61,887 nt of DNA, filler included, from Kipferlia bialata (GCA_003568945.1; 3 parts of 3 records of this genome joined end to end with filler, not necessarily neighbours in it), one strand, 5' to 3'; shown: positions 75 to 29,700, counted from the first letter of the whole stretch. Notes: generated by a model from the sequence alone, not told the origin. Translations and numbers: made by a program.

Positions 75-3000
75 GTCAGAGTCCCTCCTGTCCGAGGTGC
101 GTGACATGCGTGTGAGGCTGACCAGTGTCACTGAGCAGAGGGACGCCATGCGGAGACAGACAGAGGAGGAGGGGCAGACCAGGTATATACATACACATAC
201 TTTAGTATATGTACATATGCATCTCTGTATATATATCCCTCTGACTCTCAGGGACACTGTGGAGGGCGAGTCATGGATATACACTCGTCATACTAAATGT
301 ATTGTATTTGTATATATATGTGTGTATGTGCGTGCCTATCTAGCCACTAACTCCCAGGGACACTGTGGAGGCCGAGCTGAGGGAGAGGGCCAGGGAGGCA
401 GCCACACACGCAGCGGAGGTACATTTCTAGTTATTCATGACTATATATTTATGTTTATATGTATGTATGGTCAGGGTATATATATGCATCCACACACGCA
501 GAGGTACATAGGCGACTGTACGTATATCAAAGGATGCCTGGATCTATCTGGTATTCTTATGCTATATTTATGTTATACAATCTGATACTCATATATATAC
601 ATTCACTCATCCCCTAGGTCGATGGCAAGGGTATGGCTCTGTCTGCTGCCAATGCCACTCTGGAGAGGGATGTGCAGAGGCTGAGGGCACAGCTCGAGAA
701 GTCACACACGCAGGTATATCTCATTCATGCTCTCTCTCTCTCTCTCTCTCTCTCTCAGATTATGTGCACCCTGCGCCATGTATATACGTATATATGCATC
801 TACTATTCACCCCAGGCCCTGCAGTCTGTGTCCATTTACCTCTCTCTCACACACACACACATATATATATGCATACTCTCTCTCTATGTGTGTATATACA
901 CCCAACCTCTAGGCCATGCGCTCTGTCTCTATCTCTGAGCACGAGGGCATAGTCAACAAGGTGCAGGAGGAGATGGCAGGGGTGATCCAGACTCTGAGGT
1001 ACGATGTGTGTAAATAGTGTGTTGATAAGAGTCTATATATTTACATCTTTGGAGTGTATACGGTTAATACTTTTGGCGCTCGTGATAGCCTTGATCCATA
1101 CTGACCCTCCAGACTTGAGGTTGCCTCAGCTGAGACCTCCCAGCACGTATAGAGTATATAGTATATATGCAATCGGCTGTATATTTTACTGTTCGGAACT
1201 ACATCCACCCCCCCCCCCTCACCCTCTAGACTTGAGGTAGCCTCTGCCGAGACCTCCTTACAGGAGCATGTCAGACACAAGGACAGGGAGACGGAGGAGA
1301 GGTGAGACAGTAATGACTGATACAATGATTCATATACAAAGGTAGACATTGTGTGGGAGACGCAAGGACAGTGAGTCGGAGAACCCCCCTCCAAGAGATG
1401 AGGTAAACATATATCTAAAGAATAGAAATAGAATACTTTACCTTCACATCAGAGTGACTGCCCTTGAGCAGGACCATGCTAAACAAGTGTATCTCTCTGT
1501 GTCTCTCTCTCCATATATATATATATATATATATCCATACCCCCCCTTACCCTCAGAGTGACTGCCCTTGAGCAGGACCATGCCAGACAAGTGACACTGC
1601 TGATGGAGAGGGTGACACAGCTGGAGGGGGCAGGGGCACAGGCTAGGACACAGGTATGTATACTTATACATATATATATATATATATATATAGATGTGTG
1701 TGTGTATCTATATATGTATATGTATGAGAGTGACACAGCTGGAGGGAGCAGGGGCACAGGCTAGGACACAGGTATAGATGCATTCACATATATATATATA
1801 TATATATATTTATTATATATATATTGTCTACTTGCATATTCTCATATATGTATGAGAGTGATATGGCTGAAGAGCAGTGGTGGAAGCAAGGACTCTACTC
1901 TTTCATCACATTATGTATGTACTCTTACCTCCCAGACTGCTGCAGCCGAAGCCACCAACCGAGACCTCAGGGCCATGAACACCCAGCTGGAGCAGGCACT
2001 GGCAGAACAGAGGGAGAAGGCTAGTGAGGGTGAGTGTGTATTATGTACACAGATGTGTGTAATCGTCAATAGTTTTTGTCGTACTACACTACCAGTCCCA
2101 TGATATTTATCAGGGTCTCTGTGTTTGTGATTATACTGTTCTAACACAAGCTCTCAACGACGCCCTCCTGCAGTGCCAGTCCCATGAGTTAGATAGGGCC
2201 AGGACAGCGGCACTGGCAGCAGCACAGGGGGAGACAGACAAGTACGTGTATACTCGTAAATGAACGGGTATTTGATGTATACCACCTTTGTAAATATAGG
2301 TAAATATGGATGTTTATCTTACCTCCAGCAAGCGCCTCCGCTATGAGTCCATCACCCAGCACCTGTCCATGGCTGTGGAGGAACTGCAGACCAAGCTGAG
2401 GAAGGCAGTGAGGTGGGGAGAGACGCGTGTATACGATACTGACTATCATATACTTTTAGCATCAGACGTATGTATATACCTAACCACTAGGGAGAGTGCC
2501 GTCCTCAGGCAGCAGACCAGCACCCTCATACAATATATGTATATATGTATATATTGTATAGTATATGATACCACTCTCACTCTCAGAGAGAGTGCCGTTC
2601 TGAGGCAGCAGACCAGCACCCTGTCTGTCAAGCAGCAGAGAGAGGCACGGGCGCTGTCTGCTGAGATCAGACGCTGGAGGGAGCACGTGGCACAGTTGGA
2701 GACGCAGCTGAAGGTGTGTATGTGTTTATGGTATATATATGGCATACAATAGTATGTATATTCCTATGTGTGGAGGGAACACGTGGCACAGTTGGAGACA
2801 CAACTGAAGGTGGGAGATTGTATTTATAGTATATATATTGTGTTCCGTATATTGCATTATCGATGTGTACATCCCATATCCGTACGCACCTTGACCCCAG
2901 GTTGCTGACTCCCGTGTCAATGCCGCCGCTGCCAGGGAGAGACAGAGGGGGGACGCCCTGGCACACAAGCTGGCAGACGCACAGGCCAGGTACAGGGGGG

Positions 3001-5967
3001 AGTGTTATACTAATAATACTGATCTACTCTATTATATATATGTATATACTATTGTGTGATTACTGTATTTATTCTGTGTAATGCCAAGGTGGCAGACGCT
3101 CAGGCCAGGTATGCATCTCGGGACATATGTTCTTGTATTATATATTTGTACTCTCTGTACCTAACACTCCCAGACTAGCCCTGCAGGATGACACCATCAA
3201 TAGTTCACACACATATATATACGTGTTTCTACACACACACATATATATACGTGTTTCTATTCGCACACGTATTGAAATAGTTACTTACACTCCAGACTGG
3301 CCCTGCAGGGTGACACCATCACCACTACCAAGAGGGCCAATGCAGTGCTGAGGTGGGTGTACACGTAACACTGAGGGATTGACTATAGTGTAGTGAGTAG
3401 TGCTCTCTTTATGATTCCCCCTCTTCTGATTTGCCAACGCAGTGCTCAGGTGAGTATATCTACGTGTAATCAGAAGAAGATCATCGAAACTATGACAACT
3501 GGGGCAATTGTATTATTGAGTTGTATATTGGATCCTCACCGTGTAGGGCCGAGCGTGTCACTCTGTCTGAGCGCCTGGCAGGTGCAGTGTCTGTGACAGA
3601 CGTGACAAGAGGGGACGTTGATAGGGCTAAGGGTATGTGTAATATCTCTAAATATATATATATATATATATGTATATAATTTGTGTGTATATGTATCTAT
3701 ATATCTGCAAAATACAGTTAGACGTGGCAAGGGGTGATGTGGTTTGGGCAAAGGGTATGTATTAGTAGAACATCCATTATTACACACATTTCACATACTA
3801 CAAAATCATCTCCATATTCTCTAACCCTCAGATGAGATTGTCAGACTGAGGGCACAACTGGAGCAGAGTGAGGTATGCCTACTGACCACGCATATATTAT
3901 TATATAGATGTTGTATATTGTATATATATTATTTAATAGATGCTATGGTTCAATACTATATATGTATGCTCGGAGTGAGATATGAAACTGTACTGTACAC
4001 ATGCATATCTGGGGAATTATATGTGAAACTATTACCCCCCCTCCCTCCCCCCCACCCCCAGGCCAAGTGCAGACAGAGTGTAGATGCCGCGGCCCAGCTG
4101 TCAGAGTCACTCTCCACAACCGAGGTGGGTGGATAGTATAATATATATATATATACCTTCGCCTTGCATGTTGTTATATACTTATGGATGTAGACGAGCT
4201 GTCAGAGTCACTATCCACAACAGAGGTAAGGGTGTATGACATAATGTGATACAGTTCTTATTCGAAGTAATTTGTAGTTGTTTCACTGAATGCTTCATAT
4301 ACCTCTCCCCCTCACCCCAGGACTCCTCCAAGTCCCTGCACTCAGAGAATGCCAACCTCAGGGCAGATCTTACAAGGGCTAGGTGAATATGGTTATAGAC
4401 TCTCCATATATAACTATATCTAACTATATATAGCAGTATATGTACATTACCAACATAGGTCTGATCTTACAAGGGCTAGGTGGGTGTGGTTATAGACTCC
4501 GCAACCAATTACACTCTCCATTTGAATGCTCGAAGTTTAGTTTTACCAGTATTCGGATACTAGAGTCTCCCTTTCTCCATCTTATCTCTCCCCCCCTCCC
4601 CCCTCACTGTAGGGGTGAGATCACTGCCCTGGAGAACAGGGTAACAGGGCTCAAGGTAACGTAGCTATTTATCCTGTATATCCTGTATATCCTGTACATA
4701 AGTAAATATGCTTAGTGTTGTGACATGATGTACTCAGTGTTTGTATACCATATACGGCCTGAGTCCGAGAAGATGTGTACTATATGCATAATGAATCAGA
4801 AATGTAAGGTCTTACCCCAGGCCGAGTCCGAGAGGTTCAGGGCCGGTGCTGCCAGGGACATCAGAGAGGGGGGGGAGAGGGAGACAGCTGTCAGGTGCGG
4901 TAATTCTTTCCTGCCACTGTTGTCTCCATTACCATTATCTTTTAAACACCACTAGGATATAGTCACATTTACTTCTTTATACACAGATACCTTTGTCACT
5001 CGTAACCCCTAGGAGAGAGCTGCATGCAGCCGAGATGAGGCTCAGTGCAGTCACACAGAAGATGGGGGTGCTGGCAGAGGTATAGTGTAGTAGCGGCTCA
5101 ATTGTGTACATTTAGTCAGTTAAGAAATACTTGTAGATGTTTCCTCACATATCCGTGATAATTCATATAATGTATATATACTCTTCTAATGCTCACTGCA
5201 GGAGAACACCTCTGTGCGTGCCAGGGACAGCAGTGTGACTGCCCTGCTCTCTAGGTCCTTTGCCACGCTGGAGAGTGGGGTGGACACAGTCTTTGACAGG
5301 TGTGTCTAGGGTACACTACCCTTGCCTAAATATACTAATTCAATTGAGTCTCACCCCAGGCTGTCTGCGGAGGTGTACAGACTCTGTATCAGTATATTGA
5401 GTATCTCTATATATATTTCTCTGACTGATACTAATATGTCACTTTAATCTTCCAGGCTGTCTGCCGAGGTGTCCAGGCTGAGGAGTGGGGTCAGAGACAC
5501 AGGGGCAGAGATCGAGAGGGTCAGCACAACCAATGTCAGGTAGTGTGGTGTACAGTGTTTGGACTTATATATATTGTTTTATATATACGCTTATCCCCAG
5601 AGCCCGCTCCCAGCTGCGTGAGATTGTGACCCTTGACAAGATGTTGATGGCCCCACCCACAGAGGGCAAGAAGGGAGCCTCTAACACACCTACAACCACC
5701 TCTATGTATGGGTCTGGTGGGACCACCCACCTGTCCTCACCCTCGTCCTCGGAGTCCTCTGCCTTAGAGACGTCAGGGGGGGTATCTGCATACACTAGTG
5801 CTGGTACTGGAGGTACTAGTGGTGCTAGTGGTACTAGTGGTATTGGTGTATCTTCCTATGGCACCCCTAGTGCCTCTAGTGCAGGTGGCTATGGCACAGG
5901 CAGTCCCTATCTGTACCAGTCCCAGGTGGGGAAGCCCAGTCCACTCAGGAGGAGCCACAGGGAGTGA
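75..5967 (+). CDS. Long coiled-coil protein with Ser/Gly/Thr-rich C-terminus; about 21 exons, 5' partial
   Basis: Chain of short GT..YAG exons, phase-consistent where checked (75-182, 358-418, 618-713, 913-998, 1230-1301, 1557-1653, 1936-2029 ... 5456-5539, 5600-5967 ending TGA). They encode E/R/L/A/Q-rich heptad-like sequence such as ALSAANATLERDVQRLRAQLEK. Confidence 0.8.
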
Positions 5968-6199
5968 TGCGTGTAATAGATACTAGTCAAGTGACTAGAG
6001 TATGTCAGTTTATATTGTAGGTCATATTACATAATTCAATTGTCCACTCAGGAAGAGTGACAGGGAGGCATGAAATATAGTGCCTGCTGTGTCCCAATAT
6101 GTACAGTTCACCCCAACAGCATTCACATTTATTAACCATTTACAATCCACGTCAAGGGTGTGACACCTCTCACTCTCTCCTTCTCTCTCTGTCTGTTAT

Positions 6200-6357
6200 C
6201 TACAGCTTCTGGATGGGTGTTCCCTTCTTGACGGTGTCCTTGAGGGGTCCGTACCCACCGAGGCCCAGTGCCCATAGGCCTAGGAGCACGGCACACACAA
6301 CATCGGCAGCGGACATGGGGACAAAGCCGGTGCGGAAGCGGTAGTAGATGAGGTTGG
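6200..6357 (-). CDS. Orphan terminal exon of a small membrane protein
   Basis: After a ctcacccccag acceptor, the phase-1 frame reads NLIYYRFRTGFVPMSAADVVCAVLLGLWALGLGGYGPLKDTVKKGTPIQKL* with GC3-rich codons. It is out of phase with the upstream CFAP52 exon. Confidence 0.5.
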
Positions 6358-6536
6358 CTGGGGGTGAGAGGACAACATAGCGGAAAGGAGTGGGGGGGGG
6401 GGGGGGGGGGGGGGAAGAGGGGGGAGTGAAGTAGAGAGAGAAAGAGAAAACACAAGTGACAAATTAGAGATATGAGAACTGAACCTGAAGTGAGACACAT
6501 ACATGTACATGAATATTCGTATGCACGGTCACCCAC

Positions 6537-7554
6537 CTTGAAGATGGAGCACTCCTTGGTACCGACCAGCATGACGCCCGAGTTGGGGGAGACAGCGAGG
6601 GATGTGATGCCGCCCTCGATGGCCTCGCTCTTGAGGATGGCGAGGTTGTTCTTGGACAGCAGCACAATCTTGCCAGAGGCAGAGCCCACAATCAGGTTGC
6701 CAGAGGCGTTGGTGGTGATGGTGTGGAGGCCACCGGAGAAGGGTCTCTTCTGGGGGGCGGATGCTGCGAAGACGCGTGTCCTGAGGTTGACCTTGACCAT
6801 GTCGCCTGTCTCTGTGGTCGAGTACAGCCACTGGTCGTCGGCGTCAATGTGCAGGGCGGTGTACACACGCACCAGGGAGCCCAGGTTCACGGGGCTCTGC
6901 TTGACAATGCCAGCGGCGTAGTCAATGTCGAACACCCACATCCTCTCCTCACCCACACCCACCAGGGTCGAGGAGCATGTGGAGGTGAAGGACAGGGCGC
7001 GGATGGCCTTGCCTCCAACTATCCGGCTGCCCATCTTGGCACTGCCGCTCTCCAGCTCCCACAGGACAACCTCGTTGTCAGCACCGTAGGATGCAAGCCA
7101 CTTGTCATCGTGAGAGAAGCTCAGGGCAATCACAGACTCCTGGGGTGAGAGACGGGAACAGATGGTGAAACACCATGTACAGTATGTCTCACCTTGTGCT
7201 GCTGCAGAGTGTAGATCAGCTTCTCCTCAATCAGATCCCACACGCAGATCTCGCTGGTGAATCCCCCATGGGTAGTGGTACCGGAAGCACAGAACCTACG
7301 AGTGAGCGGATAAGAACACGAAATACAAAGATGGAGAATCCTCACCTTCCACTGGCACTCACTGTCAGAACACTAATGTTCTGTGTGTGCTCGTAGAAAG
7401 AAACTGGCCTGGTGCTGTTACCAAGCTCTGCGACGCACAAAGAAGAGCCAAGAGCATAGATATACCGCTCTCCGTCTGCCAGAAGGTATAGGCCGTTCTT
7501 GACGGCTCCATTGAACCCGATCTGCCCCCTAGGGCTAAGCTCGAGCTTAGTCAT
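6537..7554 (-). CDS. CFAP52: CFAP52/WDR16-like WD40 ciliary protein, N-terminal half only
   Basis: Exons 7554-7346, 7295-7193, 7139-6537. LELSPRGQIGFNGAV, ASGTTTHGGFTSEICVWD, TTETGDMVKVN and EGGITSL..VGTKECSIFK are colinear with the first ~320 aa of WDR16 as I recall it. Confidence 0.85.
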
Positions 7555-7747
7555 CTCTCTATACGGTGGTCAAAGGTCGTGTGTACAGGTCTCAGGCACC
7601 AAGTCTGCCGTCTAAACAGGATGCTCATTTTGCAGAATTCTTGATTTTGAGTTGAGGGTGCAGAGAAAGTTTTTGGTTTTCTGAAACTTTCAGACTGAAA
7701 GGACTCAGTATTCCACTCTCTTAGTGATCTACTCCCATTGCCATGTA

Positions 7748-9091
7748 ATGTCAGAGGAGATCCTAGGTTCGCACTCCTCGGGGAATAAGCCGGGACCGTC
7801 AGGGTACCGGTATCTGCATTTTCGGCAACTCTTTTTGATCTACGCACTTGTCCTTCTGGTAGAGTCATACGTGCACAAGACAGCCTATGTTCAGCTCGGC
7901 CTCCGGGACTCGACTGGTCATTATCTACTCTATGTACGTCAGCTAGTACGGGTATCACTCTGGTTGTTGATATACTAGTGAAACACTGTCAATTGCCTGC
8001 ACACCTCCCCTCTCTCACATTCAGTTAACCTATGCGACTGTTACCTGCACGTCGCTCTACGCAGCTGTGTCCTATCTGCCCCTGGTCCATGCAACATTGG
8101 CCACCCCCAAGTGGGAGCTGCTGTTCCACCCCAGGTACCATATACTATAATGCCCCTGTGACATGCCATCCTGTGTCACATCTAGTGTCTATCATATATA
8201 TAAATATTATTGAGCCCCACTCACTCCAGGGGACTATTCCGCCTGTCGCTCTACCACATCTCCTGCACCACTGAGCTGTGCCTGACCCTTGTCTTCTGGA
8301 CCATCCTGGGCATACACACAGAGGGCATGCCTATATGGGCACAGATATGGGCATATGTGGACAACATAGGTACTCAACAACATAATACATAGCTATATGT
8401 CAGGTGCAGGGTTATGTTCACTACAGCCTCACTTTTAGGTGTACATGGCAGCCTGATAGTGTGGCTGCTGCTGGATGGTGTCCGATACGACCCCCTACTC
8501 AGGAGGGGCTACACAGTCAAGGCCTTCCTGGCCCCTCTCATATACTGTGTGGCCTATGTGATACTGGCAGTGAGCAGCGGCATGCAGACTGGGCTCTACC
8601 CCTACTTCTTCCTGGACCCTGGGTTCATGCCATTCAACGTCATGGTCATATTTGTACGTGAGCTGGTAATATGGTTCTATATATACAGAATTCAGTTCAT
8701 CTTCTCTCCAGTCTCCAGATATTTTCTCGCCCCTTGCCTCACTCTGCAGATGATAGGCATCCTTGTGGGCCTCTTCCTGTGCCACCTGTCCCTTGTGGGT
8801 CTCTACTCCCTCTGTGACAGGTGCTCCAAGGGAAGTGGCAAGGAGTACACCACATCATACCCGACCCCTTCCCTGTCCACCTGTCCCCAATGTCTGTGTC
8901 CCATAGTTACTGCCCCATCACTGTCTAAGGGGCATGAGATCACACCTTGCTCTGAGTCACAGGATGACTTCCCCATACCTCTGTTCCCATGTGACTCACA
9001 GTCTGTTACGCGTAGTCATCCAGTCAATCTGGACCTCACTGTCGGGTGGGGGATAGACCCCCTCTCTCCCATGGGACACTCCCTTGTATAG
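7748..9091 (+). CDS. FAR-17a/AIG1-like (rolling-stone-like) multi-pass membrane protein
   Basis: Five phase-consistent exons (7748-7933, 8025-8134, 8230-8369, 8439-8653, 8750-9091). Motifs LY|LTY, VFWT, VHG and YPYFFLD plus about 6 hydrophobic segments. Confidence 0.7.
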
Positions 9092-12014: not shown

Positions 12015-12394
12015 CTACCTCCTTGGGTTGCGGCCCTTGTAGCCTCCCTTCTTAGCTCCCTTGTCAGCAGAAGACTTCCTGATGGTAAGGTGAACACAAT
12101 CGCACTCAGTATAAATATGTATACTAACCTGGCCTGCTTGGGTCTGTCATCCACAAGGAGGACATCAAGGTTGAGTGTCTCGGACAGCAGGACGTTGCGG
12201 ATGGTGGTTCCCCTCACAACCAGAAGAGGGATAGACTTAGTCTCCTTGTTGGGGACAGTGAGGCGGGCAGCGCGCACAGTCACTGACATGGCGTTGTCCA
12301 CACCCACAACAGTTCCGCGGACAGAAGCTCCGGTCTTAAGCTCAAGAGTCACTGTCTCGTTACGCAGACGCTGAACGAATCTGACGAGCTTCAT
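12015..12394 (-). CDS. SNRPD1: Small nuclear ribonucleoprotein Sm D1
   Basis: MKLVRFVQRLRNETVTLELKTG..GTVVGVDNAM..VRGTTIR..LNLDVLLVDD. One intron at 12128-12079. Confidence 0.93.
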
Positions 12395-12509
12395 TGTGTG
12401 TGCAACAAAGGAAGGCTCGCTGTCACTCCCAATTCCTCCGACTTGCTAAACCGGAGAATAGTCGGAAAGTCATAAAGAGGCACCCTGTTCTCGCCCGAGA
12501 TTGATAATA
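12395..12509. promoter_or_regulatory. Probable bidirectional promoter between SmD1 and the eIF4B-like gene
   Basis: Only 115 bp separate the two divergent ATGs. No specific motif identified. Confidence 0.5.
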
Positions 12510-13899
12510 ATGGCCAAGAAGCAGCTGCTTGACATCACACAGGGTAGGTTTTGTAGTGTTATGTACTAGTTAGGTTTGGTTTACAGTGTTCTTTGCATTC
12601 CTTCTGCAAGTATTTCCCAATGTATCATACTGATTCTCAGCTCCCTCTGGTGGAGACCAGTGGGACGAGGAGGATGATCTGGAGCAGTTCAACACTGCTC
12701 CTCCCGCCCCTGCTCGTGGTTCCGGGTCTTTCCAGTCCTCTAGGGGTTCCTCCGGATACGGCAGCTCTTCTGGTGGATACGGTGGCTCCTCCGGCGGATA
12801 CGGCAGCTCTTCTGGTGGATACGGCAGCTCTTCTGGTGGATACGGCAGCTCTTCTGGTGGATACGGAGGCTCCTCTGGTGGATACGGAGGCCGTTCCACC
12901 TCCTACAACGACTACCAGGAGACATTTGAGGTACCCAGCCGCCCCCCCTATGGAGTGCTGATCCGCAACCTTCCCTACGAGACTACCATGGAGGACATTG
13001 GCATGTTCCTGGAGCAGCAGTACCAGATCAATGACATGGACAAGATCGTGATGCATGTCAACAAGGACACAGGCGAGGCCAGAGGCTGGGCCACTGTCAT
13101 CATCAAGACCCCCGAGTCGATGCAGAAGCTCCTCGACCTCAACAACACCAGCTTCCAGGGCAGACCCATGCTCATCAAGCCAGAGAGGCAGGACATCCTC
13201 GAGCGCCAGTGTGGCCAGCAGCAGAGGGGAGGATTCGGCCAGCAGAGGGGAGGATACGGCCAGACCAGGGCTGGAGCCTTCGCCCCCCCAGGCGGCTTCT
13301 CCCGTGAGGGAATGGGTACCGGCACCTCCGCTGCCGAGAAGCGTGCTGCCCACCAGGCTGAGCGCCGTGCTTACTACGAGAGCCAGCGCCCCGAGGGATC
13401 CACCTCCACCTTCCGCTCCACCAACTCCTTCCAGGCCCCTGCCAGGGCTGAGCCTGCCGGCCCCGTCGACATGAGCGCCAAGCCCAGGGCTGCCCCAGCC
13501 GAGAGGAAGCCCAAGGCCAACCCCTTCGGAGCCGCTGCCCCCGTCGAGACTGTCGATGTGTGGGCCACCCCTTCCTCTGTGCAGCAGAGGCCTGCCAGGC
13601 GCGAGAGAACCGCCCCTGAGGAGAAGAAGAAGGCCGACCGCTTTGGATCTGCCCGCAGCATGGACTGGGTACGGGGGTTGTATCACGCAAGTTAGGTGTC
13701 TGTTATACTGTATATCGTTATGTGCTAACCCCAGGGCCGCACCAACCTGAGCACCGAGCCCAAGAAGGCCCCCAAGAAGGAGGAGGCCAAGGAGGCTCCC
13801 AAGCCCAAGGCCGCCCCCAAGGCCGCCCCCGCCAAGGAGGCCCCCGCCAAGTCTGCCACCAAGGCCAGCCACTGGGGTGCCCTCAAGAGGGAGGAGTAA
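12510..13899 (+). CDS. eIF4B/eIF4H-like RRM translation factor
   Basis: Exons 12510-12543, 12641-13668, 13735-13899. N-terminal WDEEDD, VPSRPPYGVLIRNLPY RRM, and a KANPFGAAAPVET motif typical of eIF4B. Strong codon bias. Confidence 0.8.
12746..12890 (+). repeat. 21-bp coding tandem repeat (GGATACGGCAGCTCTTCTGGT, about 6-7 copies) encoding GYGSSSG
   Basis: Direct observation. Confidence 0.95.
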
Positions 13900-14201
13900 G
13901 GACCTGGGGTATAGGGTGTCAGAGGACTGGTGACAGGTTGTGTTTGTATCTGTAGGTGTCCTGTTTGTTTTGTCTTGAGCCTCAGGGTGTTTCTGGTATG
14001 GCGTCGGGGTCTATTTGCCGGTTTTAGCACGATCCTCGCGTCTATTGGGGTTCATATGCTCTCTAAATTGAAGTACTGATGGATTTTCGTACTGATGGGG
14101 TTGTTATGATGTTTGTGATTGCTGACCACTATCTATTTGTGATACTATTGGTTGAATGACAGAAATACGGAAACATGAGACATGGAACCATTGTCCGACC
14201 T

Positions 14202-16721: not shown

Positions 16722-16864
16722 CTGCTAAAGTTGTGGCTGCGCCTCACTAGCTCATACTCACTGTCCTGCAGGGACTCACTGCCCTTCTCCTCCACAACAG
16801 CCGCAAACTCACTGAGCCTCCGAGAGAACTCTGCCGGCTTGAGGGTGGTGTTGTGTGTGGACAT
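16722..16864 (-). CDS. Exon of a hypothetical gene running into the gap
   Basis: MSTHNTTLKPAEFSRRLSEFAAVVEEKGSESLQDSEYELVRRSHNFS, then a GTGAG donor. Confidence 0.45.
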
Positions 16865-17295
16865 GGTCCAGACACCACAGGGGGGGTCAGGCTAGGTGGT
16901 AGTCTCTGGCTTCCTACTCTATCTGCTTCTCAGGTCTATTTGGTATCACTCTGGGCAACAGTGCCCACGTCTCTGGTTGGTAGACCCCCAGGCGGTACCA
17001 CGGGTACCAGAAGAGCCGCTGGGTCGCTACAGAGTACAGTTATACTGGGTGAAGGAAGGCCATGCAACTGACCATAATTTGCCTTGCAAATCCCAAGAAT
17101 AGAGGATTTGAGGGTTTAACTAAATTGGACAATAAACTTGTCACAGTGACATGACGTCTTCGAAGACTGTCATACATATTTAAAGACTTTAGACTGTCTG
17201 TCTATTGACACACAGCATCCAATATACAGGGATAGCTCTTGAATGACATAACTATCAGCAGGAAACACACTTGACACAAAAAGATACCGAATACA

Positions 17296-17467
17296 CTAAA
17301 CCCTTCCTCCCACGCCTACTCCTATGCCTACTCCTGTATGTGTGCCCTGACCGTGCCCAGGATGGGTCTGGTGACAGCTATGGTGGGCTGCCTCATCCTG
17401 CCGTACATGGCTGACTCCCTCTCCTGGGCTGCTAGCTGCTGAGACAACAGCCTGGAGTGAGAGAGGG

Positions 17468-17498
<31 letters not shown>

Positions 17499-19738
17499 GA
17501 CTGTGTGTGTGTGCCCACCTCCTATGCTCCTGGTCGGACACAGTGTTGGGTGTATTGGCCAGTCTCCTATTCCTGGCTACTCTCCGTCTCTCCCCAGGTG
17601 TCTCCCCTCCCTCCCCCTCCCCCTCCTCTGTCTCTCCCCTGGCCCTACTAGACACATGGCCTGGCAGCATGTCAATGGCACCCCTCTCCTGCACAGTCAG
17701 AAGGCTGTGTCTGTACATAATGACATAGTGTGAAGGGTCAGTGCAATCATACAGTATAGCCACCCCCACCTGTCTGAGTGCCTGCCTCTGCTCTGTGGTG
17801 GCCCTTCTCAGTATGGCCTCCAGGTGGCACAGACGGTGGGCATACTCCTAATCATGAGACACAGTCATACAGAGTCAGTGTACACTATGTATATACACCC
17901 ACCTTGATGTCCCCCCTGCCCATCCTCTCTCTCAGCAGGGCAGGGCCTGACATGGAGGAGTAGTCAGGCCGGGCACCCTCCCCCTCACTCCTATCTCCTC
18001 CCTCTGATAGTAGTGCCTTCATCTCCTGTCTAGCCTTCCTAGTCTGGGGCAGTGTCTTCGGCATGTCTAGCTGACAGGACTGGTAGATGCAGCCCCTCGC
18101 AGCAGTCAGCTGGTCTGGGGTTGGATCATGTCAGATAGATAGAGAGAGAGGGTTTCAATACATACTATATACACGTACCCAGCTTGTGCCTGAGCCCCTC
18201 TATCCTGTCCAGTGTGACTGGGATGGCACTGCATAGAGAGTCAGCCTGGGCAGACAGCCCAATAAGAGTGTCAATCTCCTCACGAGGCAGGTCCTGGGGT
18301 GAGGTGGTATACACACCGGGTGTTCATCACATATGCATACACCTCCTACACCCACCTGTACACTGAGGCCTAGTCTGGTTGGGATACCGCGGCTGGTACC
18401 TAGGGGTCAGTAGTGTACATGGTTATACTGATCAAGGGGAACATGTATTCAGGTGTATGTGCGTATATGTCGATATACCTGGGTACTCCCCCACCATGGC
18501 CTGTCTCAGATTGAGGTCAGCTGGGGGCCTGGGTGTCAGAAGCAGTGGCAGGGTATGTAAGACAGGTAGAGAGGCTTGTGTGTGTATACCTGACGTCTGC
18601 CGGGAGGGGCACATCCTTGGCCCCAGGCACACTCTCCAGTGCAGACACCCTAACAGTCAGACACACAGAGAGAGGGGTGTCAGGATACATACGCTCACAC
18701 AGTCCTGGGCTGTCCTACCTTGAGTAGAGGGTGGCCATCTTCTGGGCCTTCCTCTGCTGCACATAGCCTTCCTGCCTGACATTGGGGTATAGTGAGAGAG
18801 AGAGAGTAAGAGAGCGAGTGTGTCCACGTGTGTGTAATCCATACCTCTTGTGCATCTTTGCATATGCCGATGCCTTGGGCATGTCTAGACTGGCAACACG
18901 GGCCTTGACCTCAGCTGCCCTTGGGTGAGAGAGAGATAGAGAGAGAGAGAAAGGGATAGAGTATGTGTGCACTCCCCATACCTGTTCCTAGCATATGCAG
19001 AGGGTCTCTTCATGGGGGCAGTCCGGCACTGAGGTGAACAGAGGGAGAGAGAGAGAGGCACCATATCCGTAGTCTGTCCCATATACACTACATACACCCT
19101 ACCTTGATGGATGTGTCTCTGTGTGCCCTAGAGGCCTCAGGTCTCTGCCGGGTAACAGTCACCTCAGACTGCCTCAGATGCAGCGGGAGCGGCTTCATGA
19201 CCTGGGAGAAGAGATGTAGGTGGTATATCATCCATATACTGGTGAACATGAGAGTGACTGGGAAGGGTATCTGATTACACGTACGTGTGCATCGATGTCT
19301 GGCGACACCTCCAGCTGGGACCTGGTGGGGTGGTGGGGGGGCAGTCTGCGTCTGGCACGAGGGACAGCGGGAGAGGAGAACTGAGTGAGACAAATGGAGT
19401 ACCAAAGCTTAATCGAGTCAATAGTCACTGACCCCCATATACGCTCTTTCAGCCGCACTGGTTCTACTAGCAACATTATCACTCTTCTACACTTAGTAAG
19501 AAATATAGACCCACTGAGAGTGACAGTGGTGCCAGATGGCCAAATAGAATCATATATATAGCAAGTAAGTGTCAACTATGTATACAATGCACTCTGTAAG
19601 TCCAACACACCTGAGACTGACGCTGGAACCGGCGGACATAACTGTCGTCCTGGGCAGGCATCCCTCTCTCTGCCTCTCTCTGCCGTGTGGTATAGCGGCA
19701 CTAGGGATAGGTGGCACTAGAGAAACTGCACTTGGCAT
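17296..19738 (-). CDS. Hypothetical basic, low-complexity multi-exon protein
   Basis: Many short GC-rich exons bounded by GT and ctcacccc(c/t)ag, from MPSAVSLVPP to GVGIGVGVGGRV*. Phases were not all checked. Confidence 0.6.
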
Positions 19739-20556: not shown

Positions 20557-20596
<40 letters not shown>

Positions 20597-20696
20597 NNNN
20601 NNNNNNNNNNNNNNNNNNNNNNNNNNNNNNNNNNNNNNNNTTAATTAATTAANNNNNNNNNNNNNNNNNNNNNNNNNNNNNNNNNNNNNNNNNNNN
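20597..20696. other. Artificial contig linker N44-TTAATTAATTAA-N44
   Basis: Exactly 100 nt with a six-frame stop cassette. Identical copy at 52407-52506. Confidence 0.97.
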
Positions 20697-21161
20697 GCTC
20701 ATCATAGAGGGTTGCTTCGAGGTATGATTGTCCCCGCCCCCCCCCCCGGGACCCAATCTCCCTTCTTCTATCTCTTACCCGTCATGTTCTTTTCGATCTG
20801 ACAATTACTAGATCTAGTATGAATACCTTCCCATCCTTTGAAATGTCACACCGATTTGCAGATCAGTCTATCCTCTAGCCTATTCTACATACACCATGTA
20901 CACACTGTATGAAGTAACACAATACTGTTGAATGGGGTAACAGTAGCTATTAGCCTCCCACCCCCCACCCCCCACCCATCCCTCTCTCTCCCTCTCGCTC
21001 TCTCCCTCCGCCCAATTCTTTCTTGCTCTCTCTATCTCTCTACTCATCACAGTGTATGTCTCCTGGTGCTCCTCTCTCTTTCTCTCTCTCTCTCTCATCA
21101 GTGGCTCTCTCTATCAATCTATCTATATATATAGAGATAGCTAGATACATCTCATACCCAG

Positions 21162-22120
21162 GCTGTATGTCTCCTGGTACTGATTGTCAGCGAGGTCCTG
21201 GTGTGCCTGAAGAGGGTGAGTTCTCTCTCTCTCTCTCTCTCGAACTCCCTCACCGCCCCCCCTCTATGTATCTAATGGATGATAATGATCACATATTGTT
21301 TTGCGTTCAATTCTTCTCCACTCTTTTTATACTCTTTGTCTCGATCTAACCTCAGGTCAACCACATGTCCCTCTTTGGCAGCAGACTCACCCTGGAGGGA
21401 AGGTATTGATGTATAGTGTACTATGTATACATTCACATACAGTGTGCACTATACTGTACATATTTTTATACAGTAATAGTAATAGCTCCTTGTCTCTCTT
21501 TGGCAGCAGACTCACCCTGGAGGGGAGGTATTCATAGTGCAGTATACATAAACCATCAGCAAATGTTACTATAATGACTGGTAGTGATGCACTACGTGGT
21601 TCTATTGAGTGACATCTCCAAGCTCTCTCTCCCCCTCTCTCTCCCCCTTACCCAAAGTATCATGAGTGATATCTCCAAGCTCCGGTCCATCATGTTCTAT
21701 GGGGTACCGGTGCTGCTTGGACTGTGTCTGTGTGTGGATGTTAGGTACGCTGCATAGATCCACTTCCTATACAGATATATATGTGGACTGTGTGACAACA
21801 TGTAGTAGTCTATAATATATATTTGTTCCCATACGAACCATATATATGCATATACGTACCATGCCCCAAGGGACGTTTCCAGATATCCATATATCCAATG
21901 TATCCACTTGTATATACCCTTACCCCAGAGATGGTGCCACCCCCCAGATGGAGGCAGATACCACACAGACTCTCTCTCTCTCTCTCTGTATATACATATA
22001 TGACAGGCAGATCATCTGCCAGATGTTCTCTCTTTCTCTTTAAATTCAATATATGTATGTATATATCCCCTTACCCTCAGGGACGGTGCCACCCCCCAGA
22101 TGGAGGCAGATGTATGTTAT

Positions 22121-22167
<47 letters not shown>

Positions 22168-22925
22168 CATCTATATATATATATGTATATATCTATGTAT
22201 CTAATACCTCTAGGGATGGTGCCACCCCCCAGATGGAGGCCGATGTCAACTCGGTGGGGTTCATGGTACAGGTACAGTGGTAGTGATAGATATTACAGAG
22301 GTAAAGCATTAGTATAGGAACAATGTATGTATATAAATGCTAATATGTATATATACAGTATATGTATATGTATGTCAACTCAGTGAGATTCATGGTGCAG
22401 GTATGGTAGTATACAGTGTATACTATACACTGTAACAGGGTTTCTGTGACATTATTCTATAATATTCAAGCAGACCTCTCTCTCCACACCCTTATTCCAG
22501 CGCATGTGGTTCATCGGTGTCACCATCTGCCGCATCTTCGTTCCTGTCTTGGAGCTGTCTTTGTTGGTCGCCGCCATACACTGCGTTATGTGAGTACATA
22601 CTCATTCTATCTCTCTCTGTTTCTCGCTCTCATCCTCGTCTCCGTCAGGAAAGAGTATTATATTCACTCTCTCTCTCTCTCTTTCTCTCTCTCTCCCTAC
22701 ATCCTTTTACCCCAGGTATGCTATTCTGTTCTCAGGCTTTGTCAACCATGCAGTGTGGAGGAAGGTATGTATCCAGAAGTGAATAATAGTACTAGTTGCC
22801 ATATGGATACACTCTATATTAATACACTATAGTGTCTATACTAGCGTGGTCAACCATACAGTATGGAGAAGGGTGAGTCTGCATGCTAGTGTTTATGGTA
22901 TCTTACCCTCTCCTTCCTCTGTCTC

Positions 22926-22971
<46 letters not shown>

Positions 22972-25767
22972 TGTTCGGATACAAGCAGGGATAATCTCTC
23001 ACTATCTGTATCTATCTTGTCTTTCGAATATATACTAACGTGTGGGGGTTATTGGCAGAGAAGACGTTCTATTTTCTGACTCTCTTCCGTGTTATCTGTC
23101 GTATGAGTATATATACGAGTATTCAAGAACTCTTTCTTAAAACAGGTCTCTTCCATCAACATGCTTCCTCATGGAGATGCTATCCTCTCTTGTATATCTG
23201 TGTGTCAATACTACTATTAATATATATAGACAACAACTCTCTCTCTCACACTAGGTCTCATCCATCAACATGCGTGTCTTCCTGGTGGAGATGCTATCCT
23301 TGGGGCTCTTCTCTGCCATACTGCTGGGATACCTGGCCATAAGGTACAGTAACACACCTATCCAATAACATATAGTATATATAGTAAATGTATGTATGTG
23401 TGTCATACCCTAGACTGTCAAGGGTTTCGTCTGAGTCCTTCACACATGTTCTCTCTCTGCATCTTGTACAGAGAAATACAGGGAACGCATAGACTTGGAA
23501 TATGTATCTCACGCCAGACTATCCCGCCTGCCCTCTGAGTCCTATACCAGATTGTGTCTCTCTCTCTCTCCCTGTATCCAATGAATCTATACATCCGTAT
23601 ATATATGTATGGATGTGCATTAACCTTAGACTATCCGGCCTGCCCTCTGAGTCCTATACCAGAGACTGGGTGTATGAAGTGATGGCCATACAGGAGTCAC
23701 TGATAAAGGTATATTTGCATTCATAGACACGTACACATACAAAGAGAGAGAAAGACTGGGTGTATGAAGTGATGGCTATACAGGAGTCACTGATCAAGGT
23801 ACAAAAATTGATACATTCATATATACGCACACATACAGAGAGAGAGAGAGAGAGACTGGGTGTATGAAGTGATGGCCATACAGGAGTCACTGATAAAGGT
23901 ATGAATTTGATTACATAGAGAGAGACACATAAGAGAGAGAAAGAGATGTTCTGGGTGAATGGAGTGATGTCTATTCAAGAACTTTCATCAAGGTACCTGA
24001 ATGCATATGAAGGGGGAGAGAGAGTTGCCATATTCTTTTGGAGGATAATGCCTGATCACCTACAAATGACCATCTATGTCCCGTATGGACCTCCGTTTCG
24101 CTGACTCTCTCTCTCTTTCTGTCATACTCACCCAAGGTCACCCACCAGTGGCCGTCAGTGTTCCGCATTATCATGCTCTCTCTCTAAGTATATATATGTG
24201 TGTGTTTTTCCGAACCTTAGGTGACATACTAGTGACCCTCAGTGATCCCTATCAGCATGCTCCTCTACTTATATATATATATATATATATTAGTATATAT
24301 ACATATGTCAATATGTCTCATTATCCATACCTCACCCAGGTCACGTACCAATGGCCCTCCGTGTTTCGCATCATCATGCTCTCCTACTGCTGTCTCCCAT
24401 GTGTGCAGTATGCCATACTGATAGGCATACTGGTGGTAAAGGGGCACAAGTATAGGTATTGTGTATGTATAGATATATAAAGCGAGATATTCATACATAC
24501 ACATTAATATACATGTCTCTAGACTTTGTGCAGTATGCCATACTGATAGGCATACTTGTAGTCAAGGGACATAAGTATAGGAAAATATTTTTCGCACTTC
24601 TCCTCATGGAGCAGTTACCCACTGCACTCTCAACCTGTGGCTCCATCTCTCTCTGACTCTCCCTACACCTATATACTGGACAACCGGCATGTCTTTGTTT
24701 CCACTACCATTCTCTCTCTCTCCCCCTCTACACCCTTATTCCAGGGAGGGCCCTGGCAAGCATCGACCCCGCTCACCGATATCCCCAAGGTACTGAAATT
24801 TCAAAAATATCTCTCTCTCTCTCGCTCTGTCAATCATTGGAGTACTCTGGAATTTCGGCTTGGTACACTATCCTATCTCTCTGTTTTCTATTCTACAAAT
24901 TCCATGTTATATATTATATTCCATAATATATATTATGTGTTATTTACCATACTAGAGCGTCAAGTTCTCTCTGTGTCTGTCTCTTACTCTCCCTTCCTTA
25001 CCCTAGGATACTTGTCCTCGCCAGCAGCAGTCTCCTATTTGCACTATCCACCCTGGGTACTTTTACTACTCTCTCTATATCTCTCTCTCTTTGTCTCTCC
25101 CTAATAGGCGTCCCTAGTAAGCGTCTTTCTCACTATCGATTCTGTGCTCTATATGTCCTAAAATGTGGTCGACGTTTGCTCGGGTATCTTATCTCCATAC
25201 TTATCACTCTTCCTCTCATATACTGCATATCCCCATACCATTCTTGCTTTGACTTCCAGGCAACCTCACCATCCATGTGGTACTTGGCTTGTCGTTGTCT
25301 CATATTGGTGACCAATTTGGTCTCTAATGTATCCATCTCCATATCTCTCTCTTCCTGTCCAACCCTCAGGTGACTACCTCACCATATACGTGATTGACTC
25401 CTCCCTGACCCTGTATGTGGCCATCTTTTGCTATGACCTCGCTTTCCTGGCCATGATGGTATGCTTCATGCCAGTTAGGGCTAAGGTGATGCAGTTATAA
25501 ATATACACTACATAGATTTGTATATATATACAATATATATACATATAGATGGGTAGGATATGACATATCCTTTCTGGCCATGATGGTATGCTTCATGCCA
25601 GTCAAAGCCAAGGTACTGTATATATTCATATACCATATTATATTTACATATATATATATATACATATATTATATAGCTAGTGGTTAGGCTCTGACTCCCA
25701 GACCCAGGACACTGGCACCAGGGTCAGGTCAGGGTCTACAGTCATGAGGGAGGTAGCCGCGGTGTAG
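21162..25767 (+). CDS. Seven-transmembrane (GPCR-like topology) protein, at least 13 exons, 5' partial
   Basis: Phase-consistent exons starting at 21162, 21356, 21658, 22214, 22501, 22716, 23255, 23630, 24340, 24745, 25007, 25370, 25702 (TAG at 25765-25767). Seven hydrophobic stretches. Confidence 0.7.
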
Positions 25768-26725
25768 AGAGGTAGTGTGTGTGTATGTACGAGAGTTTGT
25801 GTTTAGGTTGTTGCTCTGGGCAGCCAGAAGAGAGGTGTGTGGGAAGAGACATAGTCTGGGTCTACAGAGATGAGAGAGGTAGTCGCGGTGTAGATGGGCA
25901 GATAGTGAAAGAAGGTGACAGAGAGGGTGGGAGTTCCAGAGAGAGGATGGGAGAGAGAGTGTATCTGTGAAGTAGACTTGTTGAGAGAGAGAGAGAGAGG
26001 AACGGGATGGCTACAGGGTAGCGTGTACAACAGAGAGTGTGTATGAGTGTGTGTGTGTGAGAGAGAGAGAGAGGAAATATGGGGTACCTGACAATGTCAA
26101 GTTGACATACCCTCGCCCATTTTCCATCCAGTCCCTATGTTAGTTTAGGAAGAGGCAGTTTCTGCCCATGTAGGTACTCACATTTGATGTGAGATAGTGT
26201 ATAATAGACAGAATATGTCATAACTCTGTTGGAATAGTTGGGTAATCTTCTCTACCTAGTAAGAAGAAAGAACATCCAATGTCCTGTTGTAAGAGACTAC
26301 CTCGTAGAGCCAGTGTATCTCTCTGTTCAACCTGCAAGCGACATTCTTATCTACTCATGACATGAAGAGAAGGATTTCGTATATAGGGCGGTGCGCCTAT
26401 ACTTCTGCAACTGTCCCGAAAGGTTGTCCCACCGCACCTCTGTGCATGTGTGTAATTCGTACATTGTCCACACGTATCTCTACTAATTGCCTTACGCATT
26501 ACCTCTATATCTTGTATACAGACATCTTACATTGTCTGCATGTATATCTATTCACTACCGTACACATGACCTCTTGGTAGAGGGCCTCTACTATCTCTTC
26601 ATCTGTAACTGCCCTGACAGGTAGTCCAGCATACTATCTATGTATGTATAGACTATGTACTTTCAGGATACTTGTATCTATTAGTTACCACCACACCCCT
26701 AACGCTACCTGTCTGCACAGGCCCT

Positions 26726-29700
26726 CTATCTCTTCATCTGCAACTGTCCCGATAGGTAGTCCAGCATACTAGACCACCTCTGCTTGTTCTCTATACCTCT
26801 GTTGACCAACTGAGAACCAAGGGTGGCGGCCTTAGGTTATAGAGGAATGGGTATCTAGATCGTGTAGGTAATAATTCACACTCTCAGTGTCTCTTAGCCA
26901 AATGAGAACGAAGGGAAGTAGCCTAACACGACAGAGTACAGGGCTGTTGAGAACAGTGCGAAATGAGAGTTACACATTATGGCAATACCATTATGATATA
27001 CACACCTCTGTCAGGCCAAGTCTGTGCATGTGGGTGGTATGTGCCTTGAGGAGTGGTAGCACCCGCTTCTCAAGGAATAGGACCTGGTGTTACTTAGTAA
27101 CTTCTCTAGTAACTTCTTTAGTAACTTCTTTAGTAACTTCTCTAGTAATTTACGAGGACTGCAATGGCCTACACTTATATACAACATAGTATGACGATCA
27201 TACAGTGGACTATTAAGTGACACGGTATCAGTAGCACTCTTAGTATACAATTACAGTAATATTGTGACATACAGAATACAAATGAACCTTACTACTGTAT
27301 ATATACTATTATATATACACTTGGGATCCGTAGTACCCTACCTGGCATGCACAGAGTGTGAGTTCCGGCCGTATCTCCTGAGTGCTCCTCCAGGCAGGGA
27401 CCAGCATCCCGGCCTATAATTAGTAACACTATTAGTGTCATTGACACTAATTTAGTGTCGTATATACATCTTTTACTGGTGTCTCTTAGGTCTCACTATA
27501 GGGTATAGATAATCACTATGCTAGAGTGTTGGCCAAGCCTTGGCCCAAGGAGTGCACGTCAATATATTCAATCACTGTTGTACTACTAGTGTATTACCTC
27601 TCTTTCCAATACACCAGACTGAAAACTCTCACGCATGGCACTACGTCCAAAGCGCTGTGCTACCTGACAGTGAGTACATCTACGGCTAGGAGGAATAGAA
27701 TATGTAATGGCTAATTGACAAGGTGAAGAGGCCCCAAACATATAACAAATATAGTGTGTAGACCCTACACTGCAGTACTAAATATATACTCCATATAGTA
27801 TAGTATCGTACCTAACAGTGAGTACTCCCCTTGTATAGTGTGTAGTATTATGGTACTGATGTATAAATGATATTAACACCGTAATAATCTACATAGCGTT
27901 CTATACCTTCCATGGCCTGACTGCGTTGCACACTTAATCAGTATATATAATGTATATACAATAGGTTACGAAACATACAAGTATATGAATAGCCACGCTG
28001 TCTAGACACTATAGTATATATACCTTCCACGGCCTGACTGCGTTGCACACTTGACCCAGAACTACCAAAGACCGAGCAGTGATAGTTTGGGCACGACCTT
28101 GTGTTTGTATACAGTTAACATATAGTCTGGGCACGTCCATGTGGTGGGAAGGGCCACTATTAGTACTATAGTAGTACAACATACCAGAAATAAGAATAGC
28201 AGAATGTGAACATATACATTTATGTACACAGTCATCCCCTACTGAACTACACTGGTATACCTAGCACCCCGTAGTATATACTATACACACTATTATAGTG
28301 TGACACTATACACTATGCACACTATTTACCTAGCTCCCCGTCTGGCTCCCCTATGGCACTGGGCACTACTGTCTCACTGGCACATATATACTATACTGTA
28401 TTATAGTATACTCCACAGTGTATTAACTATATGTACCCAATTCCCCGTCTGGCTCCCCTATAGCACTGGGCACTACCGTCTCACAGGTATATATATATAC
28501 TAACATGTATGTAAGGTATATATTATAGAGTATATATACTATAGAGACTATACTATGTACCTAACTCTCCGTCTGGCTCCCCTATGGCACTGGGCACCAC
28601 AGTCTCACTCGCTATGGCATCAACCCACTGCACAGGGGCCCGGAGCCTTCAATTAGGCGGAGTGAATGGTACATTGCAGTCCACTAACTACATCAGATTC
28701 ATATAGCGGCAGTGGGTACTTATCGTTAATCACATGTATGTGAAGTTTGTTCACAAACCTCAGCACTTGATATGTAATAGCCTTGGCCCTCGAGGCACAT
28801 GTCGACACTATCAGGTCCCTTGCAAATGCAATCTCTCTCGGTTGCTTCTCGAATAAACCAGCACCATGGAATATGGCAGTGAGTACAGTGGCAGCCTGGG
28901 GTGAGATAAACTACAATCGTTGTATGTTAAGTGGCAGTCTTAGTTTTCCCCATTAGTACTACAGAGTGTTCCTTTCGGGAGAGAGAGAGAGAGAGAGAGA
29001 ACTCACCTGTTTCTCTATGGGTACCCTCCTGCCATGTATCACGGTCACTGGGTTGTCTGTTGCTGACAGATAGTCTCTAAGGTGTTAGCAACAACGTGAT
29101 GTATCATACCCACAATACCACTAACTCTCAAGTACTGCTGTCTGTAGTAATATAGATGTATCTAAATATGTACACTATTACTATCACTATCACTATCAAT
29201 ACCTTGAGACACCCGGGTGGTCTATGCTGGTGGCTACACTTGATAGCAGCACCAGTAGCTGTAGTGCAGATGGCAGTATGACATGACCCATACTACCCGA
29301 GAGCAAGCCACCTGAGTTTACAACCTCAAAAGCATCGATATATATATATAAGACAATAGAGAATGCCATAAAACATATCAAGAAATTTGTTACTCCAATA
29401 GTGTCAAACTATTGTACTGTACTACATGAATACATACCCGAGATGAGTATCACTGACTGCAAGGAGTCCAGAGCATGAGTTGAGTTGTGGAAGGGGTTTG
29501 CCCGCATCATCCTACGGTGAGAGTCTGGAAAATACGCGGTATTCCTATCTATGCGATGTTATAGTGGTTAGTAGTGAGAGTCAGAAAGTTATGGTATTAT
29601 TATCCTTAAGAAGAGGTCGAGTATTGAATGGTATACCTAGAATATAGTAATAATATAAGTAAAAATAATACACTATGATACCTATAGATTGAGAATAGCA

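Follow-up and report, generated by a model that had tools for sequence, protein, structure and literature searches.

Intronic copies of exon ends in Kipferlia bialata are biased toward silent differences and may stem from exchange between diverged alleles

Why should a copy of an exon end that lies in an intron keep the amino acid sequence of the exon? The question is raised by a 61,887-nucleotide stretch of DNA (the window) from the metamonad Kipferlia bialata (GCA_003568945.1), in which short half-copies of exons, here called echoes, lie in introns or untranslated regions (UTRs) beside the exon ends that they resemble. A sequence-only reading of the window had picked out seven echo-exon pairs by hand, described them as differing almost only at synonymous sites, and proposed that the echoes are, or were, filtered for coding sense. 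All seven pairs lie where that reading placed them, and in the frames established here they carry 26 synonymous differences to 1 replacement. Self-comparison of the window also yielded many short direct repeats with a spacing of about 90 to 135 bp.

To take the element of choice out of the sample, we scanned five gene models (A to E) and parts of a sixth (gene F) without preselection. All 78 exons of models A to E, with 156 exon ends, were aligned to their flanking introns, and matches were kept at a score of at least 28, a cut-off attained by 8 of 4,015 unrelated exon-intron pairs. The scan gave 57 matches, of which one CT-repeat match was removed. The gene A model (22 exons) is based on RNA joints and an open frame, and the 5' end of the gene lies outside it; the gene B model (13 exons) is an open frame with which the RNA contig piece lengths agree. 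The gene C and E models match annotated proteins exactly over the parts tested. For gene D, 364 of 427 20-mers match, and one exon skipped by the annotation was retained because gene E has that exon. Gene F, on the minus strand, was kept outside the tally, its frames being taken from a predicted model that was not RNA-checked.

The remaining 56 echoes, found at 49 of the 156 exon ends, carry 98 synonymous and 73 replacement differences, with proportions of differing sites of 0.22 (synonymous, pS) and 0.056 (replacement, pN). The ratio of replacement to synonymous rates (dN/dS) between echo and exon is 0.23 (bootstrap 95% interval, 0.15 to 0.31), the zero-fold to four-fold ratio is 0.21, and mismatches at codon positions 1, 2, and 3 number 37, 29, and 105 (p = 9e-16). 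By gene, dN/dS is 0.25 in A, 0.14 in B, 0.06 in C, and 0.26 in E. The bias is thus real, but "almost only synonymous" was too strong. The unbiased estimate is not near 1, as the sequence-only reading required of its own claim, but it also showed that the hand-picked sample was biased: the six of those pairs within genes A to E give 0.011 and the remaining 50 echoes 0.29 (0.21 to 0.39), so the effect is about 20-fold weaker than the chosen pairs suggested.

The proper null for this ratio is about 0.5, not 1, because an exon beside a neutral copy accepts only silent change. Neutral tandem copies simulated under four mutation models and passed through the same pipeline gave mean dN/dS values of 0.39 to 0.60, and in not one of 400 data sets was the value as low as 0.23. 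The pS in these simulations was 0.10 to 0.14, and fixed-age runs up to a pS of 0.27 gave 0.39 to 0.44. The silent bias is weaker than first claimed but significant against a proper null.

The differences are also unevenly shared among echoes. A set of 24 of the 56 differs from the exons at 37 of 198 synonymous sites and at not one of 562 replacement sites. As the score threshold is raised, pS stays at 0.20 to 0.22 and pN falls from 0.056 to 0.020; across echoes the two showed no correlation (rho = 0.13, p = 0.35). Adding a synonymous-only offset of 0.16 to a decay of 0.06 gives a better fit than a model with no offset (twice the log-likelihood difference, 31.6). The pN of single echoes ranges up to 0.24, and four of the 56 contain a stop or an indel. 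Genes D and E are paralogs (185 of 297 residues identical, pS 0.59), and when each served as outgroup for the other, replacement differences were echo-derived in 23 cases versus 3, while synonymous differences were symmetric (6 versus 9).

Splice signals are preserved along with the codons. Of the echoes, 26 lie upstream and 30 downstream of their exons; the former begin with the exon 5' end in 23 cases, and the latter finish with the 3' end in 24. The AG is retained in 20 of 26 upstream echoes and the GT in 21 of 28 downstream echoes. A branch motif with AG is present in 18 of the 26 upstream echoes, compared with 0.5% of background intron positions. In real acceptors across the window, the motif (YTNAY) stands 2 to 7 bases before the AG in 65 of 72 cases, the branch point being nearly fused with the 3' splice site. 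The echo acceptor differs from that of its own exon in 17 of the 18 cases, and the donor hexamer differs from the exon's own in 17 of the 21 GT-retaining echoes. Even so, the mean donor score of echoes is 1.27, against 1.37 for real donors and -0.76 for intronic GT; donor positions +3 to +8 match those of the exon's own donor in 56% of cases and those of random pairs in 36%. A present or past filter for coding sense is thus supported, since dN/dS lies below the neutral tandem-copy range, and splice signals are filtered likewise.

These results bear on the account that echoes are plain mirages, the name given to duplicated exon-intron boundaries in amphioxus: neutral tandem duplicates kept alike by gene conversion on the same chromosome, with a silent excess due to exon constraint, mutation bias, and sampling. 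This account predicts a dN/dS of 0.4 to 0.6 rather than 1, and it is in keeping with the existence of 73 replacement differences, with gene D, where dN/dS alone is 0.56, and with the biased hand-picked sample. However, no neutral simulation gave the observed value, the offset model is preferred, and branch motifs retained in changed sequence are beyond its reach. We regard it as decidedly unlikely.

The anatomy of the echoes is regular. They are 16 to 54 bp long, and 46 of the 56 lie 83 to 133 bp from their exon counterpart (mean 109, standard deviation 13), most of the others being near two or three times that distance. Far junctions are sharp, with 4.4 of 18 bases matching past the echo end versus 4.0 to 4.6 when shifted, and no gradual fading was seen over these 18 bases. 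A dinucleotide run stands beside the junction in 31 of 56 echoes (background, 28%). Intron flanks are better aligned than unrelated introns in only 12 of 51 cases. Copies in an array have their junction in common; in 7 of 10 arrays the exon is matched more closely by the nearer copy, and one array is a tie. Intron-only repeats at a spacing of about 110 bp were rare, and genes A, B, and F each have an echo of their last codons in the 3' UTR, without the involvement of a splice site, indicating that the relevant boundary is that between coding and noncoding sequence rather than splicing. Control genes (five predicted, four of them with mostly short, GC-richer introns) gave 1 marginal match in 41 introns. 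Median intron length is 189 to 300 bp in four echo-rich models versus 68 to 76 bp in three compact genes.

DNA and RNA evidence came from two sequencing runs of one sample, assembled into contigs and neither on record as RNA; the second was treated as RNA because GT-AG joints are present in it. Contigs lose rare forms, and minor use of echoes would be invisible in them. The DNA contigs match the window without differences, one covering 1828-3639 at a depth of 446, and those that join echo and exon in gene B and over 26085-27000 have depths of 434 to 473, as does neighboring single-copy DNA. The expectation that echo and exon share one molecule held for four of the seven hand-picked pairs, each on one DNA contig, while the other three are unbridged among the contigs listed. 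The DNA run is a possible source of the window and so is not an independent sample. These contigs bear on an assembly artifact in which two alleles were laid in tandem. The published genome is indeed a short-read SPAdes assembly of an organism that is diploid by k-mers, with 124,912 GT-AG introns according to the available text (PMC5874029), and the pattern resembles two alleles. Yet contigs, possibly those from which the window was built, span echo and exon at single-copy-like depth, arrays hold three synonymous types, and the RNA has one allele; an artifact is extremely improbable.

One contig of the RNA run covers gene A, with the echoes inside removed GT-AG introns and no other letters, and the gene B RNA contigs contain true exons only, the echo letters being absent. 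No contig of this run covers 26390-27000. Among the joints listed for the DNA run, none collapses an echo onto its exon, although contigs lose rare forms; a joint search at a lower likeness cut-off left the joint table swamped by microsatellite noise. In-register GT/AG pairs were not enriched in the echoes (one upstream, five downstream, none with a branch motif), and in-register alternative splicing was rejected on this ground. The suggestion that echo letters enter mRNA thus has no support within what contigs can retain.

Echoes might nevertheless work in place, with a minority of transcripts or genome copies switching through the shared sequence, so that the echoes would be translated and under purifying selection now. 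Conserved codons and splice signals amid saturated flanks fit this explanation, as do a drift of echo third positions to A/T, as under relaxed codon-bias selection, and the four echo-bearing ends that genes D and E have in common (p = 0.04). It is opposed by RNA contigs that match the exons (rare forms aside), the unenriched in-register pairs, the stops, indels, and high single-echo pN values, and the near absence of matches in the predicted control genes, and we consider it quite unlikely. A homology-guided DNA or RNA switch in Kipferlia that connects echoes with exons in a minority of the molecules and uses the signals, codons, and stops of the echo appears just as doubtful; if true, it would amount to a gene-wide system for backup or diversification that is based on 110-bp direct repeats and has no counterpart known so far. 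Neither a role of echoes in mRNA nor one in programmed rearrangement is supported.

The sequence-only reading had offered four candidate mechanisms (swapping of spare exon ends by conversion or slippage, unequal crossover between diverged alleles, use in mRNA, and DNA rearrangement), and exchange between diverged alleles fits best. We think it probable, though well short of certain, that an echo was recently the working exon end (or the last codons) of another allele and was placed in tandem by misaligned exchange between homologs. In the population, synonymous divergence between alleles would be about 16%, and their microsatellite-rich introns would be much more divergent, so that only coding sequence could pair. 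After a break within an exon, about 110 bases would be copied from the homolog, past the exon edge, and the extended end would be joined back at a dinucleotide run rather than re-annealing. The end of the incoming allele would stay in use and the resident end would be left stranded in the intron, the surviving events being only those with the junk in an intron or UTR. Thereafter, the array could expand, collapse, or be refreshed whenever an echo undergoes out-of-register crossover or conversion with the exon end of another allele, and through repeated refreshing the echo sequence would keep passing through a functional state, with neutral decay between exchanges amounting to a mean of about 0.06 per site. 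No function at their present site need be assumed for the echoes.

A copy that had been neutral since its birth on the same chromosome cannot look like an echo. Same-chromosome conversion alone cannot bring dN/dS below about 0.4 to 0.5, and conversion from the exon beside it would erase silent differences and would fail to retain a branch motif unlike the exon's own. Hypermutable introns around a neutral echo were also rejected, as the branch motif would then be lost rather than rewritten, and a single hybridization with two parental types is disfavored by the three synonymous types in arrays. Steps of the proposed exchange have precedents: failed synthesis-dependent strand annealing (SDSA) followed by end joining yields tandem duplications in Caenorhabditis elegans, as reported in the consulted sections of PMC8654963, and metamonads are described as lacking nonhomologous end joining and depending on homologous recombination in those of PMC8516963.

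Two further origins were weighed against exchange between alleles. In the first, echoes are spare exon ends on the same chromosome, and frequent echo-exon deletion by slippage or single-strand annealing selects against damaged echoes. Such a collapse would use just what stays conserved, namely, the acceptor and 5' codons, the 3' codons and donor, or the last codons and stop, and it fits the tendency of replacement differences to lie away from the splice-site end (0.61 versus 0.47 in median relative position; p = 0.02), a gradient that may in part be alignment over-extension. However, saturated flanks imply that echoes persist, which would keep collapse from being much more frequent than point mutation, and this would not suffice for a several-fold cut in replacements unless diversity is extreme, and young near-identical duplicates of whole units and intron-only duplicates are scarce. 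This origin is rather unlikely. In the second, the donors are paralogs or lost homeologs inserted ectopically as templates. Expressed paralogs of gene B differ at at least 10 places in exon 22501-22589, and the far end of one gene E echo matches gene D. Against this, every D and E echo is closer to its own exon than to the paralog's (17 of 17), gene A has no paralog contig differences among those listed, and insertion beside the matching exon is left without explanation; paralog donors are very improbable.

Several observations weigh against exchange between diverged alleles. We infer the mechanism from one sample with one allele only: no second haplotype was present at gene A in the DNA run, where the culture looks homozygous, and no second Kipferlia allele or strain was found, the metagenome scans giving no relative and the KIPB_000808 and KIPB_000811 protein clusters having single members. 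The period of 109 ± 13 bp has no explanation. Compared with the acceptor of its own exon, an echo acceptor is like a random real acceptor, with the free branch position the same in 5 of 18 cases (0.26 for random pairs), while four-fold sites differ by only 23.5%; the flanks thus look older than the exon part, and one-step capture alone is insufficient. Synonymous differences are skewed from exon G/C to echo A/T (49 versus 28, p = 0.02), which is not the symmetry of pure allele swapping. The farther copy is the fresher in 2 of 10 arrays, gene D alone lies within the neutral range, and without the six hand-picked pairs the dN/dS interval of 0.21 to 0.39 touches the lowest null mean. Lastly, the C. 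elegans duplications are sister-templated, with a median near 1 kb in the sections of PMC8654963 consulted.

The echoes of gene A, a coiled-coil protein gene (75-5967, plus strand, as are genes B to E), lie at 252-270, 486-504, 1113-1140, 1358-1381, 1453-1489, 1726-1771, 2084-2103, 2492-2526, 2771-2809, 3085-3108, 3174-3199, 3720-3754, 4197-4225, 4450-4479, 5360-5383, and 6042-6067. The echo at 1113-1140 has a branch motif and AG of its own and copies the 5' end of exon 1230-1301 (3 synonymous differences, 0 replacements). That at 1726-1771 copies the 3' end of exon 1557-1653 with a GT donor (2 synonymous, 0 replacements), and a third, more decayed copy lies near 1851-1890. Exon 2587-2713 is echoed at both ends, each echo being on the same DNA contig as the exon and having 3 synonymous differences: the 5' end at 2491-2527 with its own acceptor, and the 3' end at 2771-2809 with the GT retained. 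The echo at 4197-4225 copies the 3' end of exon 4062-4124 (GT retained, 2 synonymous), and 6042-6067 copies the last codons in the 3' UTR, without a splice site (1 synonymous, 2 replacements). A gene predictor called five echoes as exons in gene A; in practice, gene prediction is misled by echoes.

Gene B, which encodes a membrane protein (21162-25767), has echoes at 21053-21070, 21491-21527, 21606-21625, 21930-21959, 22081-22113, 22372-22400, 22844-22868, 23146-23186, 23518-23551, 23753-23798, 23851-23898, 23951-23980, 24137-24180, 24221-24269, 24527-24580, 25559-25612, and 25854-25893. The 3' end of exon 23630-23708 forms a four-copy array (23661-24000; offsets of +90, +190, and +285) with a common junction at a GA run and a decayed last copy. 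The 5' end of exon 24340-24455 is echoed at 24137-24180 (6 synonymous, 1 replacement), and its nearer copy at 24221-24269 is more decayed and contains a stop. The 3' end of the same exon is echoed at 24527-24580 (5 synonymous, 0 replacements) on the same DNA contig, with the GT not retained in register. An RNA contig (depth, 9.4) reads through intron 25029-25398 unspliced; within it lies an echo-like stretch, strongly decayed, that has an acceptor near 25260. Over exon 22501-22589, two or more paralogs of gene B are present elsewhere at full DNA depth, one of them in RNA, and the differences are mostly at third positions.

Gene C (KIPB_000808, acid sphingomyelinase C-terminal domain, 35470-39031; exon 100% identical to the annotated protein) has echoes at 36047-36067, 36947-36982, 37453-37476, 38101-38133, 38261-38283, and 38713-38728. 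The annotated KIPB_000808 (34830-39031) contains only the C-terminal part of acid sphingomyelinase after a coiled-coil-like start and may be a truncated or misjoined gene. Gene D (KIPB_000809, 39882-44832, from the model) has echoes at 40340-40366, 40959-40985, 41427-41456, 41980-42009, 42215-42244, 42489-42521, 42927-42960, 43032-43068, and 43700-43731, and in its array at 42829-43150 decay grows with distance. Gene D exon 42322-42405, absent from annotated KIPB_000809, is homologous to gene E exon 48901-48975; it has GC where gene E has its donor, and a GT nine bases on. Gene E (KIPB_000811, 46013-51674; exon 100% identical to the annotated protein) has echoes at 46838-46861, 46935-46965, 47366-47386, 48818-48848, 49059-49093, 49143-49171, 49857-49874, and 50117-50144. 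The far end of the distal echo of exon 47036-47099 (46831-46870) reads Asp-Gln-Tyr, as does the paralogous gene D exon, where the gene E exon now reads Gln-Asp-Tyr, and this echo is a fossil of an older or other allele.

The seventh hand-picked pair, 26591-26635 and 26726-26770, is synonymous as described but is better read on the minus strand, a strand assigned from the extent of similarity, as the last 14 codons and stop of gene F; there, too, its 4 differences are synonymous, and the stop is retained. A decayed third copy lies at 26397-26429, and one DNA contig covers all three. Farther along gene F (minus strand, predicted frame), the exon 3' end at 28561-28612 has echoes at about 28438-28483 (6 synonymous, 0 replacements, by eye) and 28331-28381 (5 synonymous, 0 replacements), and this array (28331-28612) has three different synonymous codons at one site. 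The exon end at 32009-32044 is echoed at 31906-31941 (minus strand, 2 synonymous). Replacements are thus absent from the fresh echoes of gene F, which differ from the exon at 4, 5, 2, and (by eye) 6 silent sites; a decayed copy has 1 silent difference and 4 replacements.

Elsewhere in the window, predicted genes at 16800-19400, 52800-56000, and 58900-61300 (including SSRP1-like and helicase-like genes) have short introns (median, 68 to 76 bp) with a GC content of about 0.5 and almost no echoes; the echo-bearing genes have long AT-rich introns. An Sm/LSM-domain gene (12134-12374, minus strand) lies head to head with an RRM gene (12500-13900, plus strand) that has a Gly-Ser-Tyr repeat. The window consists of three pieces joined by 100-base linkers (44 N, a 12-base TTAA repeat, and 44 N) at 20597-20696 and 52407-52506, and sequences on either side of a linker probably do not lie next to each other in the genome.

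A dN/dS below the neutral floor, together with diverged working splice signals, points to exchange between diverged alleles as a source of mirages, which is testable with two haplotypes. If this is true, alleles that have been lost would be recorded in a single haploid assembly, population diversity could be estimated from echoes (about 0.16 at silent sites), and there would be indirect evidence of outcrossing in a free-living fornicate. Echoes also offer a route of intron growth, in line with the longer introns of echo-rich genes, and they bear on how a reduced spliceosome passes over a complete decoy acceptor 110 bases upstream.

Known systems share some of these features. Mutually exclusive duplicated exons are tandem copies with low dN/dS and preserved splice signals. 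Echoes, in contrast, are half exons with one splice site and are absent from RNA contigs, and an in-frame acceptor and donor for each copy is lacking, given that in-register GT/AG pairs show no enrichment. In ciliates, the pointers for programmed DNA elimination are direct repeats flanking AT-rich sequence. Echoes differ in that they are imperfect, 16 to 54 bp long, and present with both copies in bulk DNA, the spacer leaving as a GT-AG intron. A 37-bp variable number tandem repeat in intron 7 of human F7 is similarly a boundary-spanning repeat with silent downstream donors, the most upstream donor being chosen; it is a single locus with identical pseudo-sites, and the available part of its description reports no coding-sense filter (PMC1557585). 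Duplications in C. elegans helq-1 and brc-1 repair mutants likewise arise by extension of a break end and microhomology (polymerase theta) end joining, with a lower size limit of about 100 bp, but they are copied from the sister, identical at birth, and about 100 bp to 10 kb long (PMC8654963, consulted sections). Here the template would be the homolog rather than the sister. SDSA with end joining would leave sharp junctions with microhomology or templated insertions; for the echoes, sharpness and an enrichment beside dinucleotide runs were observed.

The closest counterparts are the amphioxus mirages, repeats noted since 2002 and of an origin called unclear in the available text of PMC3087553, which are found in Adh3, the globins BflGb6 and BflGb9, troponin C, and PGBD5 (PMC3087553 and PMC3902484, in part). 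The sequence-only reading put the echoes forward as its best candidate for an undescribed system. Duplicated exon-intron boundaries were in fact already known from amphioxus. We found no report of a silent-site filter there: the word "synonymous" is absent from the available text of PMC3087553, and a search of the open literature, with subscription journals outside its scope, gave no account of Kipferlia echoes or of a synonymous bias in mirages. Nor does the first half of the K. bialata genome paper mention such repeats (PMC5874029). As in mirages, tandem duplication extends over the exon-intron boundary on both the 5' (26) and 3' (30) sides, many but not all copies carry AG (20 of 26) or GT (21 of 28), and regular splicing is undisturbed, the gene A and B RNA contigs having true exons only. 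Mirage units, however, are similar over their whole length, including the intron part (81 to 100% identical; PMC3087553, available text), compared with 12 of 51 flanks here, some arrays excepted; echoes are therefore filed as a mirage-like variant rather than a plain member. Echoes also mostly come as a single extra copy, occur at 49 of 156 exon ends, and have a period of 109 ± 13 bp, compared with mirage units of 10 to 160 bp, and stop-codon ends are copied as well, in a metamonad protist. Read by eye in supplement 4 of PMC3087553, amphioxus BflGb6 repeats D3 to D5 differ from the exon by 6 silent changes and no replacement; repeats D1, D2, and D6 also have replacements, a stop, or indels. 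Between the working exons of the two BflGb6 haplotypes there are five silent differences, and at 3 of their 6 silently changed sites D3 to D5 have the base found in the working exon of the other haplotype, a pattern that, at this one locus and by eye, is as the allele model would predict. What is new in Kipferlia is the selection signature, the density, the fixed period, and the metamonad host.

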